Assembly (NCBI GenBank): GCA_000004985.1
Contig: GG738920.1
Reading direction: 5' to 3' (one strand)
DNA length: 64,000 nucleotides
Source: Naegleria gruberi
Taxonomy: Eukaryota
Notes under the pieces: generated by a model
Told to the model about the DNA's origin: nothing
Databases searched by the model: none
The model's input: only the letters and a program-made list of their open reading frames with translations
Position numbers and translations under genes: made by a program
Part shown: positions 14,633-46,029 of the stretch, in pieces
How the letters are laid out: each line of letters opens with the position of its first letter
Position numbering within the stretch: position 1 is the first letter of the stretch

Positions 14633-16745
14633 CTATTCCTCATCAACAAGTGACTGATTAGAATCCAACGATGCCAGTGTAGTACTACTACTACCAAATC
14701 CCATCTGTTTCTCAGCCAACTTTCTATAAATTCCCTTCTCCAAACCAATCAACTCCTTGTGCGTTCCAGCTTCCTTCAATTCTCCCTTTGCCAACACATA
14801 AATCACATCACAATTCTGAACAGTTGACAAACGATGAGCAATGGAAACTGATGTTCTTCCTTTCATGAGAGTTTCAAGGGCTGCCTGAACTAGTGCTTCA
14901 GATTCAGTGTCGAGTGCTGAGGTTGCTTCATCTAAGAGGAGGATTTTTGGATTTTGTAAGAGAGCTCTTGCAATGGCAATACGTTGTTTTTGGCCACCTG
15001 AAAGGGAGACTCCCTTTTCACCCAGCATGGTGTCGTAGCCATTAGGGAGCTCGAGGATAAAGTTGTGGCAGTTGGCAGCTTTGGCAGCTTGTTCGATTTG
15101 ATCTTGAGTGACATTTTCAATTCCAATGGCATAGGCTAGGTTTTCTCTAATGTTCATTGCAAATAGAACAGGTTCTTGAGTTACAATGCCAACTATGTGA
15201 AAACAATATAGAACAAGACAAATGTCTAAAACTTACCATATTTGTGCAACCATTGAGGATCAATTTCCTTAATGTTAACTCCGTCAATGAAAATTTCACC
15301 TTCTTGTGGATCATAATATCTTTCCAATAAACCAACAATTGTGGATTTTCCTGAACCAGATGGACCAACCAAAGCAATCGATTGACCAACTCGGATATCA
15401 AGTGAGAAATCCTTAAGAACTGTCACATTTGGACGAGATGGATAATTAAATTTGACATTTCTGAATTCTATTTTACCAACTTGTTCACCCAATTGTTTTC
15501 CACCTTTGAATGGAATAGCCGGTTCTCTCTTAATAACTTTCAATAAGGCAGTNTGACTCATNTGAGCTTTTGACATATCTGGAAGCATGATTAAAGCTTG
15601 GGATAAACCAAAAATACTAAAAATGGTTAAAATTAAGAAATTGTTAAATAATAAACATACGCAAAAATTAATAAACCAAACACCTTGACCAAATCACCAA
15701 CTGTAATGACACCATCAGCTGCCAAATTACCACTTTAGGAAAATGTTAATTTCACAAAACTTAATAGAGTTACAACTTACCCATACCAAAGAGCCAATGC
15801 AATTGTTCCCCAGGAAATGATATTTTCACTTGAAATACTGACACCTTGAATACTTGCTCTGATAATTGCATACAAACGTAAACGTTTCAAAATATTGGCA
15901 AAGTTGACTTGTTCCTTTTCTTCACATCCCATGCTTTTCACAGTTTTGAATGAAGAAACAACTTCAGTGGCCTTTGCAGCACTCTTGGAAATGACAATAT
16001 TGGATTTTCCAGTAAGAATCTCAGTAAACTTTCCTAAAATGACTGTAATGATCAACATTAATGGAACAGTTGACATCATGACAAGAGACATTTGCCAACT
16101 ACTAATCAATGCAAGAATTAGACCAATTACAAACATTCCCAAATTGGACATGATCAATGAAAGTTTAGTAGTGTAAGCTTCTTGAATCTTGGCCACATCT
16201 TCACTCAATCCAATGGTCAATGCACCTGTTTGTTTCACATCAAAGAATCCGACATCTTGTCTTGTTAAGGCATTGAAATAGGCCTTTCTCAATGAAACTC
16301 CAATCAGCTCATTGGCCCAACTCAAAAAGAATTGAGCTATGAAACTTGCAGCCATACCACCAATGGCCACTCCAGTGAATTTTATAGAAATGAGAGAAAT
16401 GTCACTCTTAATCTTTTCAGTGGTTGGTAAATTGCCGTTCGAATCTGCTTGGAAAATGTTAATCAAATCACCAAATAGAAATTGAAACACCAAGAGAATG
16501 ACACCATTTCCTAGCGAACCAATAATTCCCAAGAAGAGAAAGACCCAACTCCATCCAAAGATTTTGTAAATTCTCAAATGGTCATAAAAGTGAATCTTTG
16601 GTTCTCTTTCATCTTTGAGTTCCATAGAAAAATCATTCTTCTTTTTCTTGAATGGATTTCTACTTTTACGTGGTTGTTGTTGTTCAGTATTTACAGCTTG
16701 TTCAACTACTGTCATTTTGTTTTGTTGTTTGATTACATTGTTCAA
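14633..16745 (-). CDS. ABC transporter, ABCB-type half transporter (TMD-NBD), about 4 exons
   Basis: TMD exon 15777..16745 (6 helices). Walker [10 protein letters not shown] (15226..15588 exon). ABC signature [16 protein letters not shown], Walker [13 protein letters not shown] and H-loop SIAHRLST (14633..15157 exon). Introns with GTAAGT/GTATGT donors at ~15730-15776, ~15606-15655 and ~15170-15225. Two ambiguous bases (n) at 15553 and 15563. Confidence 0.85.
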
Positions 16746-38148: not shown

Positions 38149-38460
38149 TTTTAAGACTTATTAAACGAGAACTGTTAAATGGGTCGGTAGTGGCTGGGCG
38201 CAGGTGGAAATATCATCTNNNNNNNNNNNNNNNNNNNNNNNNNNNNNNNNNNNNNNNNNNNNNNNNNNTAACTCGAGTGAGTGTGAAAAATACCATTATT
38301 TTCTCTCTGTACCAAGCTGGTATCCATTCATTTAACAGTTCTCAATTAATAAGTCTTAAAACTTGTCTTGAAACCTAATTGAGGAATATTAAATGAATGG
38401 ATACCAGCTTGGTACAGAGAGAAAATAATGGTATTTTTCACACTCACTCGAGTTAACGAG
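38149..38460. repeat. Nested palindromic/foldback repeat array surrounding a 50-N assembly gap (38219..38268)
   Basis: 38269..38335 (taactcgagtgagtgtgaaaaataccattattttctctctgtaccaagctggtatccattcatttaa) is the exact reverse complement of 38392..38458. 38149..38185 (gttttaagacttattaaacgagaactgttaaatg) is a near-exact inverted copy of 38323..38365. Consistent with copies in alternating orientation of a ~95-bp element. Confidence 0.7.
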
Positions 38461-39705: not shown

Positions 39706-39795
39706 TGATGCGAGTGGGATTTGAACCCACGCCCTTGCGGAACACGGAATTTATACTCCTAAACGTGTCGTCTTAGACCACTCGACCATCGCACC
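39706..39795 (-). tRNA. tRNA-Leu (anticodon UAG), class II long variable arm, with about 10-nt intron 3' of anticodon
   Basis: Minus-strand sequence GGTGCGA-TG-GTC-GAGTGGTCTAA-GAC-G-ACACG-TTTAGG[agtataaatt]C-CGTGT-TCCGCAAGGGC-GTGGG-TTCAAAT-CCCAC-TCGCATC-A. Acceptor 7 bp with one G-U pair, GG in D-loop, TTCAAAT T-loop, 11-nt variable arm, discriminator A; anticodon loop T-T-TAG-G with an intron between 37 and 38 as in eukaryotic tRNA-Leu. Confidence 0.75.
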
Positions 39796-39841: not shown

Positions 39842-40923
39842 TTACCTTAATACTTTATTTGGTCTTTTTGCCCAACAAAACATTGATTCCGTACCTGACC
39901 AAGCATTCCAACCTTTATGCGTTATAACATCTCTAGCCTCATCTGCTTTCTTCCAATTCAATGAAAAGAAACGTTGCTCTTCATCCTTAATTCCAATAAA
40001 ATTGCAAACTTTCCTCAAATTAGCCAACAATCTCCATACATACAATCTTCCAGGATAACCAGCACATAATTCTGATAATATCCCCAAAGGAACAAATATA
40101 ATTCCTCTCCAGTCAAATACAAATTTTGAAAAGGTGGCGACGAAACCTTTTCCAATAGAATTGAAAGGTGCATCTTTATGATTGACCATAATTGGTGGAA
40201 TGTAATCTGAGCAATGTCCCATAGATCTGAAGAATGCGTTGAACATCAAGATTGAGCTCAGCCAAAATGATTCATCATTGGAAAATTCCAAAATCCAATT
40301 TGGCAAAACTATTCGAAACAATGTCATTGACTTTGGTATTAGTATTTGTGGAATGATAAAATACCAGAGAGAAAAGAAAAAGCATGTAATGAAGAATTGG
40401 AATCGATAAATTTGATTTTTTGTCTTTGATTGTGCTTTGATATCTGGGGTTGTTTCATTATTCGAAACTATGGATATCGATAATAATTGCACTAAACACA
40501 AAATGTAATGAATCCAATATAATAAACCAGGAAATTGACGAAAACACACACTTCCATAATAATTAAAATACCATGCCCATCTATGAACAGTTCCACAACA
40601 TGTGTTTAGTTGATTTCCAATAAAAAACAATAACTTACAATGTCAAATCTATTGGAAAGGTCAGAATATGAGACCATATATTAAACAGTGTCTGATGATA
40701 AACATATCCAGTCACTGATTGCAACACAAAGTTTTTATGTCCATAATTTCTCAATGGTTGCGAAGTAAATCCATTACCTTAAAATTAGAATAGAACCTTT
40801 CAATTCTTGAATATTGGAAAGTAACTTACTTTGCCATTTAGATAAGAGAATTGGTGCACATGTAGCCAACAACATGAACAGTGAATTTATAACCAACAAC
40901 AGTGGTATCTCATAGAGCTGCAT
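39842..40923 (-). CDS. Multi-pass membrane protein 'X' copy 1 (paralog of 44384..45264), multi-exon
   Basis: Start ATG 40921-40923 (MQLYEIPLLLVINSLFMLLATCAPILLSKWQS then GTAAGT intron). Large exon 39842..40630 with ..VHRWAWYFNYYGSVCFRQFPGLLYWIHYILCLVQLLSISIVSNNE.. and HCSDYIPPIMVNH, CAGYPGRLYVW blocks shared with copy 2. Confidence 0.5.
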
Positions 40924-41097
40924 CTTTTTTTCAGAGTTTCGAATTAAACCTACTGTGGTTTGCTGTAATTTTGCGAGTAAAAGTAAATTTCACTGCATTG
41001 TTTCCAATTACAATGCAAAAAGTCAACCTGTCGTTGTTAAATGGTTAAGCTTAATCAATCTTACTATTTCCATAAAAAGGCTCTTTCCTTGTCCATA

Positions 41098-41290
41098 CAT
41101 AACACCATGAAACCTTTAAGACGGCCAACACTTGTAACTGACAGATTAGTGAACTTTTCAAGCAGTGCATCTGTCACTGCTCATTGTATCAAATTATGAG
41201 GACTCCAACAAAATATTGAAAAAATGTCAATAACCACTTCCTTTTGTTTATGAAATTCTTCATGGCTTACAATTATTATCAATAAAGCAG
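41098..41290 (+). pseudogene. Remnant of small membrane-protein gene 'Y' (copy 1): conserved promoter/5' region and first codons, then premature stop
   Basis: 41041..41150 is about 85% identical to 43330..43440 (ggttaagcttaatcaatcttactatttccataaaaaggctctttccttgtccatacataacaccatgaaacc). The ATG-TCA-ATA homolog of Y2's start reads MSITTSFCL* and terminates after 9 codons. Confidence 0.45.
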
Positions 41291-41357
41291 TCAACAACAT
41301 GATAATACTTTTAATATCATAACACGTAATTTATTATCTAGGAAAGGTGTTATAGTC

Positions 41358-42365
41358 CTAATCATACATTATTGATTTATCAACAAGGTATGTCTGTATT
41401 TCACTATCAACAAACTCTGTAGTTCTGCCATGATTTTCCTTTTCATGGAGAATATCATTCTTTGAAATAATGTTTTCAGATTGAAGATATTCAAGACACC
41501 GATCTGTATCCCATCTCTGTTTTGAATCTTTGTGGAGCATATTTGAACTCATTTCTCGTATCTTGGTTATCACTCGTTTTTGATTTTCTGAAAATGTAGA
41601 AACTGTAAGATTCCAATCTAATATTTCTGAAATAACAATTCCCAAACAATAAATATCGGTCAAAGGCGTAATATAACCAGATCCTGTTTTTTCTTTTTCT
41701 GGGGGCATCATATTTGGAGTTCCTTAATGATTTGGTTGGATTAGTAAATTGTAAATTATGAAAACATACCTGCTTTGGAATAAACCTTGTCACCAAAAAG
41801 TTCACAAATTTGATTCTCCCTATCATAAAAGTCAAATTTCTTTGCTAGTTCAAAGTCAATTAACTTGGTAAAATCATTGTAAATAACTATATTACTTCTT
41901 TTCACATCATTGTGAATATATTTAAGCATGTGAATCTTTCCCATTTCTACCAATAATTGAACAATCATTTTCACAGCTTTTTCAAAATCAACACTAACAT
42001 CTGTCAAACATTTACCTTCAAATGACATCTCAACATAAAATGCTGAAGCTTTGACATGTATCGCGCAAAGATAGATTGTTTTTTCTTTAACTTGTCAGCA
42101 GTTAAAATGCTATTTTCATCAACTTGTTGTGAGAAATTTTCAACAAGCAAATTAGTTTATCTTCGTCTGGGTGATTTTGTGCCTCGTTGAGGATATCTGA
42201 CTCATCTTCTTGTAGTACACGTATTACATACGAACCTGTATTTGGAATTTTAAATGTAACACTTCTATCAGACATTAATTGTTTGAGTTTTTCGTTCAAT
42301 TCTTTAAAGTTTTCATTGGCTCTGACCATGTTTAATTGCACCCCTCTGTATCGATTATGAGTCAT
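41358..42365 (-). pseudogene. Degenerate protein-kinase-like gene (pseudokinase or pseudogene), split over ORFs 42102..42365, 41756..42028, 41491..41835 and 41358..41711
   Basis: Kinase subdomain VIb HNDVKRSNIV (HRD changed to HND), VII IDFELAK (DFG changed to DFE), IX DIYCLGIVISEIL. Putative glycine-loop/VAIK region degenerate (TGSYVIRVLQ). Reading frame broken several times. Confidence 0.5.
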
Positions 42366-42387
42366 AAATTGAAGCTACTAAAGAAAC

Positions 42388-43017
42388 TTACGCATTTGTC
42401 TTGGTATCTCCAAAAAGATCACTCATATTACAAAGAGAGCTGAACATCCTAATTGTTAATTCCAGGTCGCTAGGCTCTTCACAACATCCCATCAATACCC
42501 TTTCTTTGAACAATAAAGGGTGAAGACACCACCTTGCATGTTGAATTTCTATTGAGTGGCAAACTTTCTTTTCAAACTTTGGGCTTTTTGATAGTAGATT
42601 TCGAATAGAAGTTTCAGAAGCATTTTCTTCTGCAACTTTGCTTAGTAAACTTTCAAATTCCTTTGCCAAAGGGGAAATAACATCGTTGTGGTTAGATACA
42701 TCGCTGGGGGTTATACGAAACAATGACAGTTTGCAAAGGAATCTGTTTTTAGACTCACACCATGCTGGAATCTGAAACGGTTTACTTTTATAGTATCCAG
42801 AAGAAATGTACATTCTCAAAAGGTGCGATTCATTTGCTTCTAGTGCAGACAAGTCATTTTGTATTTCTGCTTCAATACTGTTGTTAAAATTTGGATCGGA
42901 AGCAACTCTCTTTTTTGTTGGCGAATGTGGTGGTTCGTCCAATACTTGTTTTTTTGGTGGTTTCACTCTCAGTTTTTGTTTTCCTGTTGTTTTAAGGCTA
43001 TTTAATGAAGTGGGCAT
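42388..43017 (-). CDS. Hypothetical protein (209 aa), possibly the N-terminal regulatory part of the adjacent kinase-like gene
   Basis: Intact ORF on the same strand immediately upstream of the kinase-like ORFs; no domain recognised. Confidence 0.3.
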   Translation of the reverse strand: MPTSLNSLKTTGKQKLRVKPPKKQVLDEPPHSPTKKRVASDPNFNNSIEAEIQNDLSALEANESHLLRMYISSGYYKSKPFQIPAWCESKNRFLCKLSLFRITPSDVSNHNDVISPLAKEFESLLSKVAEENASETSIRNLLSKSPKFEKKVCHSIEIQHARWCLHPLLFKERVLMGCCEEPSDLELTIRMFSSLCNMSDLFGDTKTNA

Positions 43018-43494
43018 TTTTTTTAAACATTAAAGCTGTAGTGAAAAAGGCGCCAACCATGAGGTTACTAACATTTCTCTTTATTTTACACAATTGACAT
43101 TCGATATTCAATAAATAGAACGAGCAAAAGAAAGTTTGAACTCTGAATCGTAACAATTACACAATGTAAAGTATTAGAGTTAAACTATTTCAAATATTGA
43201 GTAATGATATCCTTAATTATCATTTATTATGCGAATTAATCTACACGTGTTGTAGCATAAACTCAAATAACGAATGGAATAAAACAGACTAAAAGGAAAT
43301 TCACTGCAAAAAATCGACATGTCATTAATACGGTTAAGCTTGATCATTCTTAATATTTCCATAAAAAGGTTCTTTCCTTGTCTATACATAACACCATGAA
43401 ACCTTTAAAACCGCCAACACTTGTAACTGACACGTTTGTGCATCTGTCACTGCTCATTGTATCAAATGAATTACTCAAGCAAAATATTGAAAAA

Positions 43495-44001
43495 ATGTCA
43501 ATAATCAAAACCTTTCCTGCCTTGTTTATGAAATTCTTCATGGCTTACACTTGGTTTGAACCTCTTTTCTGTGAAATATTCCTCGGCTTGTTGTTATTCT
43601 TCTTTCCAACAAATGAATTTGTGATCAATTCCTTTGTTCACACACCACTTTTCAATGCCATGAAAGAATCACTTCCTATTCATGATAGTTTGGCCTTTCT
43701 GATGAGATTTATTTCAATGTTATTGACCACGTTTGGATGTTTGCACTTTTTAATACTGCTAACATGCAACTATCATAGAAAAACAATTGCCCCACAGAAG
43801 AAGTGGTCTCAAAATGTTCTCTTCAATGTACTCATTGCAGTGTTATTGATTGGTGATTGTTTTCATGTGTTGTGTGTTTTAACATTGGAAGGTTCTTTGA
43901 AATCTCAAATTGTTTATCAACTTCCATTAACTATTTACTGTATAATAGTGAGGGCGATGTTTATTATCATGAATCAATTGAAATTATTGAATGATTTTTA
44001 A
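43495..44001 (+). CDS. Small multi-pass membrane protein 'Y' copy 2 (about 168 aa)
   Basis: MSIIKTFPALFMKFFMAYTWFEPLFCEIFLGLLLFFFPTNEFVINSFVHTPLFNAMKESLPIHDSLAFLMRFISMLLT.. is about 85% identical to 45514..46029. The longer ORF from 43378 includes likely 5'-UTR. Confidence 0.5.
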   Translation: MSIIKTFPALFMKFFMAYTWFEPLFCEIFLGLLLFFFPTNEFVINSFVHTPLFNAMKESLPIHDSLAFLMRFISMLLTTFGCLHFLILLTCNYHRKTIAPQKKWSQNVLFNVLIAVLLIGDCFHVLCVLTLEGSLKSQIVYQLPLTIYCIIVRAMFIIMNQLKLLNDF

Positions 44002-44383
44002 CAATTTATTCAATTATTGAATAAGTCTAAGGTGAAACTGTTTAATCTGTTTAATATTAAATTAAGTTTTGTATTGTCCATTAAGTATATTTAATAAGGA
44101 CGAAGGGCGAATGCAATTTCATTGTTTGAATGAACAATAAAGTGGGCATTTCAATCTTTGAAATTCTTATTGTTTACAATTGCCCATTCAAAAATTGGTT
44201 TTGTAATTGACCAAGAATTCCATCCCTGTCGGTTAATTAAAAATTTTGCCTTGTCAACTTGTTTCCAATTTAATGAAAAAAAGTTTGATTTTCATCTTCA
44301 ATTCCAATAAAATTACAAATTCTCCTCAAATTTGCTAACAATCTCCTATTCGAAAGTTGTCAAAAATTTGGAAATGAAATCAC

Positions 44384-45264
44384 TTACCAAACATACAATC
44401 TACCAGGATATCCAGCACATAATTCGGATAATATTCCAAGTGGTAAGAATATTAAAACTTTCCATTCGAAAGCTAATTGTAAAAATGCTGAAAATCCTTT
44501 TCCAATTGAGGTAAATGGTAAATCCACATGTTTAACCATAATTGGTGGAATATAATCGGAACAATGAGCTATTGATCGTATGGATGCATTGAGTATCAAG
44601 AAGCAGTTCAGTAAAATTGGATCATTTGAAATTCGAATTGGAAAAATTCGAAACATGATGAACGGAAGAATGAAATACCAAAACGAAAAGGCAAAGTATG
44701 TAATAAGGAACTGTAATAAATAGAAATTAAACTTTTGATAGCGGTAGATTATTAGAGAGGAATCTGTTTGCTCTTTAGTTGGTTTTTCATTATTCGAAAC
44801 TATGGATATCGATAATAATTGCACTAAACACAACATGTAATGAATCCAATATAATAAACCAGGAAATTGAGGAAACCACACACTTCCATAATAATTAAAA
44901 TACCATGCCCATCTATGAACAGTTACACAAAACACGTGTTTAGTTGAATTTCCAATAAAAAAACAATAACTTACAATGTCAAATCTATTGGAAAGGTCAG
45001 AATATGAGACCATATATTAAACAGTGTCTGATGATAGACATATCCAGTCACTGATTGCAACACAAAGTTTTTATGACCATAATTTCTCAATGGTTGCGAA
45101 GTAAATCCATTACCTATGAAAAAATTAACAATTATTCCAGTTTCGCGAAACCCCACAAAAAACTTACTTTGCCACTTGGAAATAAGAACTGGTGCACATG
45201 TCGATGACAACACGAACAATGCATTCCCAACAAACAACCAGGGAACGTTCTCTGTAAGTTGCAT
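44384..45264 (-). CDS. Multi-pass membrane protein 'X' copy 2, 2+ exons
   Basis: Start ATG 45262-45264 (MQLTENVPWLFVGNALFVLSSTCAPVLISKWQSK), intron ~45105-45165, body exon 44384..45013 with VHRWAWYFNYYGSVWFPQFPGLLYWIHYMLCLVQLLSISIVSNNE and HCSDYIPPIMVKH, CAGYPGRLYVW. Confidence 0.5.
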
Positions 45265-45513
45265 CTTTTTTTTGTTTCGTTTAATTTTCTAAACTTTTTT
45301 CCACTTGATAAAGTTGAAAGTGCACTGGCGCATTACTGATCCACCAAATTTCAATGAATATATCATGTTTCCCTTCTCTCTAGATGGTTCTTTCCATTTA
45401 CATAGGACCTCTTCGTACCGCAATTTAAAGATTAGTACTGACACGTACTTTCATAGAAATATTCAAAGTGTCAACATCATCCAACAGATGTCATCCACTG
45501 CTGAGTATTTCAC

Positions 45514-46029
45514 ATGAAAAAAATGACAGCAAACCATTCCATCCTAGCACTATTTATGAAAGTGTTCATTACCTACATGTGGTTTGAACCAATTTTCTGT
45601 GAAATTGTACTCGGCTTGTTGTTATTCTTCTTTCCAACGAATGAATTTGTGATTAATTCATTTGTTCACACACCACTCTTCAATGCCATGAAAGAATCAC
45701 TTCCTATTCATGATAGTTTGGCCTTTCTGATGAGATTTATTTCAATGTTATTAACTATTTTTGGAGGTTTACATTTACTGTTAATGGTTGCTTGTAATTA
45801 TCATCAAAGAGATGTGGAATCTCAGAATAAGTGGTCTAAGAATGTTCTCTTCAATGCAATGGTGGCCATTCTGTTGGTTGGTGATTGTTTTCATGTGTTG
45901 TGTGTTTTAACATTGGACGGTTCTTTGAAATCTCAAATTGTTTATCAACTTCCATTAACTATTTACTGTATAATAGTGAGGGGCATGTTTATTATCATGA
46001 ATCAATTCAAAATGTTGAATGATTTTTAG
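45514..46029 (+). CDS. Small multi-pass membrane protein 'Y' copy 3 (171 aa), divergently paired with X copy 2
   Basis: MKKMTANHSILALFMKVFITYMWFEPIFCEIVLGLLLFFFPTNEFVINSFVHTPLFNAMKESLPIHDSLAFLMRFISMLLTIFGG...; four hydrophobic segments. Confidence 0.5.
   Translation: MKKMTANHSILALFMKVFITYMWFEPIFCEIVLGLLLFFFPTNEFVINSFVHTPLFNAMKESLPIHDSLAFLMRFISMLLTIFGGLHLLLMVACNYHQRDVESQNKWSKNVLFNAMVAILLVGDCFHVLCVLTLDGSLKSQIVYQLPLTIYCIIVRGMFIIMNQFKMLNDF

Follow-up and report, generated by a model that had tools for sequence, protein, structure and literature searches.

Clusters of paralogous genes, tandem or segmental, that are homogenised by ectopic gene conversion are a general phenomenon in eukaryotes. A cluster of this type is described here from a 64,000-nucleotide stretch of Naegleria gruberi DNA (contig GG738920.1, assembly GCA_000004985.1; the whole stretch is called the window below), in which copies of two unrelated membrane-protein genes, X and Y, are arranged around a kinase-like gene. 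For X, the closest described proteins are those of the Mpo1-like family (PF06127). PMC10398889 gives yeast Mpo1 (YGL010W) as a 2-hydroxy fatty acid dioxygenase, citing Seki 2019 and Mori 2020; the title of Seki 2019, as listed in that article, calls the reaction Fe2+-dependent.

The locus is an ordinary, old and partly decaying paralogue cluster with gene conversion, in which an intron was also gained or lost between the copies. In the explanation that fits the observations best, an old segmental duplication with later partial rearrangement would have multiplied the two membrane-protein genes, which are unrelated to each other, around an ancestral pair of X and kinase. The copies diverged long ago, ectopic gene conversion homogenises patches of them, and decay proceeds piecemeal, Y1 being reduced to a 5' stub, X2 carrying a C-terminal frameshift and the kinase-like gene a frame break. 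We regard this account as a whole, including X as a distant Mpo1-like branch and the absence of an X-Y module, as reasonably probable.

The GC content of the window is about 32%, and the genes of the locus are interrupted by GT-AG introns of 42-58 nt; this is a spliced eukaryotic locus. Since such introns fragment the real genes in a bacterial-style list of open reading frames (ORFs), several details of the original prediction, which had been made from the sequence and such a list, find their explanation here. The gene order along the locus is X1-Y1'-kinase-Y2-X2-Y3, where Y1' is the remnant of a Y copy (Table 1). X1 and Y1 are head-to-head with a spacer of 301 bp, and so are X2 and Y3 (249 bp); Y2 and X2 stand tail-to-tail (149 bp), and Y2 is head-to-head with the kinase-like gene (477 bp). 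Two paralogous copies of a multi-pass membrane gene X had been proposed, and their relationship was confirmed far beyond chance (X1 against X2, E 1.5e-102 in tblastn, 70% protein identity). The proposal of paralogous Y copies, two intact and one 5' remnant, was confirmed as well (Y2/Y3, E about 1e-85, with 4e-85 for Y3 against Y2; 78% protein identity). X1/X2 and Y2/Y3 were the only copies recovered when the 64-kb window was searched by tblastn. The orientations assigned to the X and Y copies were correct, with the adjustment that the head-to-head partner of Y2 is the kinase-like gene and not X. Simple tandem-duplication models failed to reproduce the observed order, and no synteny wider than X and the kinase was found with the N. 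fowleri and N. lovaniensis loci.

The age of the copies was estimated from the synonymous and non-synonymous divergence (dS and dN), using Nei-Gojobori counts in codon blocks (30 codons each for X1/X2). In a sliding window the two X units showed 65-80% identity across most of the coding sequence. In one tract, 316 of 331 positions are identical, versus about 58-62% in its flanks. This tract spans exon 2, intron 2 and the start of exon 3, and the YHQ..N..H motif lies inside it. Intron 2, within the tract, is identical at 52 of 62 positions (84%), whereas the value for intron 1 is 27 of 54 (50%). Between codons 30 and 119 only 2 synonymous and 3 non-synonymous differences separate X1 from X2; in all the other blocks the proportion of differing synonymous sites (pS) is 0.54-0.89, which corresponds to a dS of about 1-1.4 or to saturation. 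The overall dN/dS of the pair is about 0.27. The Y2/Y3 pair is a similar mosaic, with a dS of at least 1 in codons 0-20 and 80-120 and of 0-0.1 in codons 60-80 and 120-170; its dN/dS is about 0.28, and outside the ORF the flanks of the two genes do not align at all. The mosaic of dS together with the dN/dS values thus indicates that the duplicates are old, that they have been under purifying selection and that they were recently patched by ectopic gene conversion. The array had been described as young and still-evolving. The high or saturated dS outside the conversion tracts does not agree with the first term, while the second is justified by the tracts themselves, by the intron present in one paralogue only and by the frameshifts. 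The locus shares with other homogenised paralogue clusters the mosaic identity, the sharp tracts of dS near zero (one of them including an intron) within an old divergence, and the decay of some copies. Nothing unusual was seen in this comparison; tracts are present in both of the two unrelated gene families of the cluster.

The relatives of X were collected by searching 1.84 billion cluster representatives with a profile, at a cut-off of E<=1e-3; the queries, used for the structure prediction as well, were the N. fowleri homologue (P0001) and the exon translations of the window. The family consists of 47 representatives, found in Naegleria species, Willaertia magna, Cavostelium apophysatum and Adineta vaga and among unnamed metagenomic proteins, so that its range covers Heterolobosea, an amoebozoan, a rotifer, and both eukaryote-like and bacterium-like metagenomic contigs. 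The proteins are about 300-490 amino acids long, with roughly five or six membrane helices. Residues H80, H89, W100, Q129, R246, H250, P256, E298 and R306 (P0001 numbering) are nearly invariant in the alignment, and two motifs stand out, Y-H-x4-N-x3-H-x4-P and G-H-x2-(D/E)-x2-P-P. Pfam scans of X1, X2 and all the 47 members returned nothing relevant, the four isolated single-member matches (e.g. Lactamase_B_2 on one fusion protein) being unrelated. In a sequence-profile search of the PDB, X gave nothing below E 0.6.

These motifs resemble those of yeast Mpo1 (DUF962), and this lead was then put to the test. The Mpo1 sequence used as a control scored 82.7 bits against PF06127 and retrieved 77 PF06127 proteins. 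The X-family alignment was compared by hhalign with an alignment of 27 diverse PF06127 proteins. The two were matched with a probability of 90.9% (E 1.1e-6) over 122 columns, which include both motifs in the same order; in reversed-alignment controls the probability was 0.3-0.4%. The comparison pairs YH..N..H of X with Y18/H19/N24/H28 of Mpo1, and GH..(D/E)..P with G114/H115/E119/P123. Each element of the Mpo1 signature H19, H28, H115, E119 and P123 has its counterpart in the X family, namely H80, H89, H250, the acidic position and P256 in P0001 numbering; in X1 the signature residues are H59, H68, H200 and D203. With a hidden Markov model (HMM) built from the 27 Mpo1-like proteins, 20 members of the X family (best score 21.4 bits) outranked every reversed decoy (best score 5.8), and the bacterium-like members scored 16-21 bits. 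Both families are integral membrane proteins having Y-H-x4-N-x3-H-x4-P followed by G-H-x2-3-(E/D)-x2-3-P.

A number of points weigh against this assignment. The gathering score of PF06127 (24 bits) was reached neither by X1 and X2 nor by any of the 47 members, and X1 itself obtained only 0.9 bits with the Mpo1-like HMM; the link is transitive, passing through the family profile and the bacterium-like members. X1 has 323 amino acids and its homologues up to 490, while Mpo1 is a protein of about 170-200 amino acids with about 4 transmembrane (TM) helices, a compact architecture that X does not share. X has an additional conserved C-terminal region (G..SE..AG.P.RL ... GW) with no equivalent in Mpo1, and differs also by a variable central loop. 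The acidic residue lies one position closer to the histidine than in Mpo1, and it is D in the Naegleria X proteins where the X family and Mpo1 have E. The AlphaFold2 model of P0001 had a predicted local distance difference test (pLDDT) score of 50, which is too poor for a test of the fold. On balance, the sequence comparisons suggest that X is probably a distant, much longer relative of the Mpo1-like proteins, which falls outside PF06127 as it is defined. On that reading, and by analogy with Mpo1, X would most likely be an oxygenase embedded in the membrane, dependent on Fe2+ bound by histidines and with a lipid as its substrate.

The neighbours of the X homologues give weak, though mutually consistent, hints of lipid or sterol oxidation. 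In Willaertia the X homologue is head-to-head with a gene of the EBP (sterol isomerase) family, and a P450 gene adjoins the homologues on two metagenomic contigs. On three related bacterium-like contigs an AMP-binding gene of the acyl-CoA synthetase type immediately precedes the X-family gene, and Rieske/KshA_C and FMO genes are also found near X homologues on bacterium-like contigs. In this way a rare family that has no Pfam model becomes tentatively tied to the Mpo1-like Fe2+ dioxygenases. This provides a testable hypothesis of a histidine-ligated lipid oxygenase for hypothetical proteins of Naegleria, the pathogen N. fowleri among them, and for those of Willaertia, of a rotifer and of bacterium-like metagenomic contigs. 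It is a modest lead in the family assignment of X and opens no major question.

Some further members of the family deserve description. The GC-rich ones are located on contigs with bacterial gene content (L009, L010-L012). P0024, a protein of 590 amino acids, is fused to a metallo-beta-lactamase-fold domain. In Willaertia (JBEGDK010000162.1, 5888-9296 of the extracted locus; KAL9642326/7) the homologue is annotated as two adjacent genes of 266 and 431 amino acids, 30 nt apart. One half of the family protein, N-terminal or C-terminal, is found in each, and they are probably a single gene that contains a low-complexity insert and was split in the annotation.

Table 1. Positions in the window of the genes, the gene remnant and the X conversion tract
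Feature	Coordinates	Strand	Description
X1	39842..40923	-	exons 40923-40830, 40777-40639, 40580-39842; intact, 323-aa multi-pass membrane protein
X gene-conversion tract	40450..40780		equivalent to 44785-45115
Y1 remnant	41010..41272 (approx.)	+	upstream region and about 16 decayed codons of Y; nearest to Y2
Kinase-like gene	41358..43017	-	multi-exon, its extension to 43017 being tentative; C-lobe exons 42084-41770 and 41722-41358 with a 47-nt intron between them
Y2	43495..44001	+	intact, intronless, 168 aa, 4 hydrophobic helices
X2	44151..45264	-	exons 45264-45168, 45113-44975, 44912-44388, 44345-44151; paralogue of X1
Y3	45514..46029	+	intact, intronless 171-aa paralogue of Y2

The spliced model of X1 is open throughout and matches its homologues with E 9e-87. 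Both junctions align gap-free with the Naegleria homologues, which read ...KWQS|DAYTSQP... and ...DLT|WW..YF across them, and near each of the two there is also a break between the tblastn segments in N. fowleri. The VHR at the beginning of VHRWAWYF, a block that had been put forward as protein, turned out to be translated intron, the homologues having ...DLTWW... at this place. X2 contains both introns of X1 and an extra one of 42 nt at 44387-44346 (-). Its end had been placed at 44384, but the gene runs on through this intron to 44151. The extra intron (GTAAGT...ATAG, of in-frame length) follows ...GRLYVW, where X1 reads straight through, so that the two old paralogues differ in the presence of an intron. 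P0002, the homologue from N. lovaniensis, is apparently intronless (1473 nt for 490 amino acids).

In X2 as assembled, the deletion of one nucleotide in a T-run (T7) near 44276 leads to a premature stop (...NQTFFH*), by which the conserved C-terminus is truncated. Past the frameshift the +1 frame is open as far as a stop codon that corresponds in position to the one of X1, and this downstream part matches the homologues at 46-67%. Since the frame is still open and still resembles the homologues, the lesion is either recent or an assembly error. A G-to-A change adjoining a conserved histidine was also observed in X2. The searches of the protein collections for X1 and X2 returned the X proteins of other Naegleria species and none from N. 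gruberi, although Y3 of N. gruberi is present there, so that the N. gruberi gene and protein set appears to lack X1 as well as X2.

The Y proteins have 168-171 amino acids and four hydrophobic helices. Y3 is identical (100%) from residue 4 on to an NCBI entry, 'predicted protein [Naegleria gruberi]', and this entry itself was the sole match of Y among 5.8 billion proteins in a shared-word search, which very distant relatives could escape. No Pfam match was obtained at E<=1 and no hit below E 0.6 in the PDB sequence-profile search; the AlphaFold2 model, with a pLDDT of 51, was again too poor for a comparison of folds. A relationship of Y to X or to Mpo1-like proteins was ruled out by hhalign (probability <=0.2%). 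EBP was considered because of the EBP gene that is head-to-head with X in Willaertia, but Y as an EBP / EXPERA four-TM protein was likewise ruled out, having no Pfam match and an hhalign probability of 0.2% against the Willaertia EBP-like protein. Although Y has no homologues, the purifying selection detected in its unconverted blocks speaks for a genuine coding gene. As judged from these data, Y2 and Y3 encode a predicted lineage-restricted four-helix membrane protein, found only in N. gruberi and under purifying selection.

The remnant Y1 was compared with the upstream region and the first 19 codons of Y2 (43300-43552), and 214 of 273 positions match, the homology stopping abruptly at 41272. 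The decay proposed for this copy (MSITTSFCL*) could be confirmed: relative to Y2, the frame is destroyed by a 16-nt insertion and a 7-nt deletion. A co-duplication of promoter and 5' sequence had also been suggested. It holds between Y1 and Y2, to which the shared upstream sequence is restricted, and fails for the intergenic regions between X and Y, since the two X-Y spacers are about 40% identical to each other and cannot be aligned. With a start at an alternative in-frame ATG at 43396 (43396-43494 +), Y2 would be longer by 33 residues (MKPLKPPTLVTD...). The Y1 remnant (41108-41199 +) has kept this upstream ATG and the first 12 codons, and Y3 is without such an N-terminal extension.

Directly downstream of the N. 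lovaniensis X gene (P0002), in the same orientation, lies a kinase-like gene of 398 amino acids having the same unusual HND...DFE motifs, and its product is 37-40% identical to the window copy over the C-lobe. On the minus strand of the window X2 comes first, then Y2 on the opposite strand, then the kinase-like gene. Since the X-then-kinase order is found in N. lovaniensis as well, the kinase-like gene is an ancestral neighbour of X, and not one trapped between the copies, as had been supposed. The 47-nt intron joins ...YSKAG|GTPNMMPPE..., in parallel to GTPGYFPPE of the N. lovaniensis homologue, and one exon alone scored 31.9 bits against the eukaryotic protein kinase domain (Pkinase, PF00069), above the gathering cutoff of 31.7 bits. 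No consensus GT-AG intron can connect the N-terminal part (42345-42124, in frame with ...LICLLKISHNK) to the frame of the C-lobe. When any GT/GC-AG intron was allowed, no consensus-like solution retained the region homologous to the N. lovaniensis kinase. By postulating a 39-nt GTTGAT...AAAG intron and one extra A in an A6 run (~42084), a conceptual protein is obtained that matches the Pkinase profile from position 48 to 223 with 58.6 bits. The HxD-type catalytic loop of the domain is kept (HND), while DFE replaces DFG, the frame is broken in the N. gruberi copy, and profile positions 1-47, with the Gly-loop and VAIK, are unmatched both in N. gruberi and in the N. lovaniensis protein. The gene had been taken for a degenerate pseudogene. 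'Degenerate' may be right, as there is one frame break in the N-terminal half of the gene as assembled; as for the rest, it is a multi-exon, conserved neighbour of X, and on the basis of its motifs we would call it a conserved pseudokinase-like gene with one frame break in this assembly. A 209-aa ORF at 42388-43017 (-) without a Pfam match ends in GTAAGT, and 22 nt further on comes the ATG of the kinase-like gene. This ORF (43017-42388) could be an N-terminal first exon of the latter or could belong to another gene; nothing equivalent to it is present in the kinase of N. lovaniensis.

The repeated X-Y divergent unit had been interpreted as a sign that the two membrane proteins work as a module, for example as an Mpo1-like oxygenase with a small four-TM accessory subunit, X and Y being co-regulated from a bidirectional promoter and hence duplicated and retained together. 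The two head-to-head pairs with spacers of 250-300 bp agree with this idea, as do the membrane character of both proteins and the concerted evolution in both families within the cluster. However, both adjacencies trace to one duplication and amount to one event only, the two spacers cannot be aligned with each other, and the partner of Y2 is the kinase-like gene. The intactness of the genes is anti-correlated: the intact X1 adjoins only the dead Y1, and Y2 and Y3, both intact, stand on either side of the frameshifted X2. X homologues were examined in the loci of N. fowleri (L001), N. lovaniensis (L002) and Willaertia magna (L003) and in metagenomic loci that are Naegleria-like or otherwise eukaryote-like (L004-L008); L005, which has the same genes as L004, was absent from the tblastn output. 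No Y-like sequence was detected with Y2 and Y3 by tblastn in the other seven X-bearing loci, nor was a Y homologue seen elsewhere in the protein collection, so that, as far as could be tested in these loci of other organisms, X and Y are not neighbours outside the window, the outcome that the original prediction itself had named as contrary to it. Thus the co-duplication of an X-Y unit did not stand as an argument for a module, and the adjacency is most simply understood as the legacy of a single duplication; a functional two-component system appears quite improbable to us. An elaborated form of the same idea, in which X would be an unrecognised, widely scattered Mpo1-like branch with an added C-terminal domain that recruited the lineage-specific four-TM Y, with bidirectional promoters and concerted evolution, and so gave rise to a newly born two-subunit lipid oxygenase, we hold to be very doubtful.

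The account of old duplicates patched by gene conversion has to be weighed also against the view that the cluster is a gene graveyard, in which X1 alone is functional and X2, the kinase-like gene and perhaps the Ys are pseudogenes or spurious ORFs. The frameshift of X2 and the G-to-A change beside its conserved histidine would fit in well with this, and so would the frame break of the kinase-like gene, the decay of Y1, the want of a Y homologue elsewhere in the protein search, and the fact that this search yielded an N. gruberi entry for Y3 and none for X. We consider it unlikely nevertheless, since the dN/dS values of both pairs, with the unconverted blocks included, point to purifying selection, the X2 frame past its lesion is still open and still matches the homologues (a recent event or an error), and the C-lobe ORF of the kinase-like gene is intact and conserved with N. 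lovaniensis. The frameshifts of X2 and of the kinase-like gene are both situated in homopolymer runs and could be assembly errors, which weighs against the decay that our own account assumes for them. Finally, the near-identical X and Y blocks could have arisen by very strong purifying selection on functional motifs instead of gene conversion, and the X tract does hold YHQ..N..H, the most conserved motif of the family. However, the synonymous sites of the tract are nearly unchanged (2 in 90 codons) as compared with a dS of about 1 or more elsewhere, and the intron inside the tract is far better conserved than the one outside it. Selection alone is therefore a highly improbable cause of these blocks, and gene conversion is the reading that we retain.

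Apart from these genes, a few features of the flanking sequence were recorded. Single Ns occur at 15553 and 15562 of the window, and a 50-N assembly gap at 38219-38268, inside or beside a gene, lies about 1.5 kb to the left of the X1 region. A tRNA gene of 90 nt was detected at 39706-39795 (-), 47 nt downstream of the X1 stop (Rfam RF00005, 49.8 bits). Its anticodon was not assigned by ARAGORN; inspection by eye suggests a type-II tRNA-Leu(UAG) in which position 37 is followed by a short intron, about 10 nt long.

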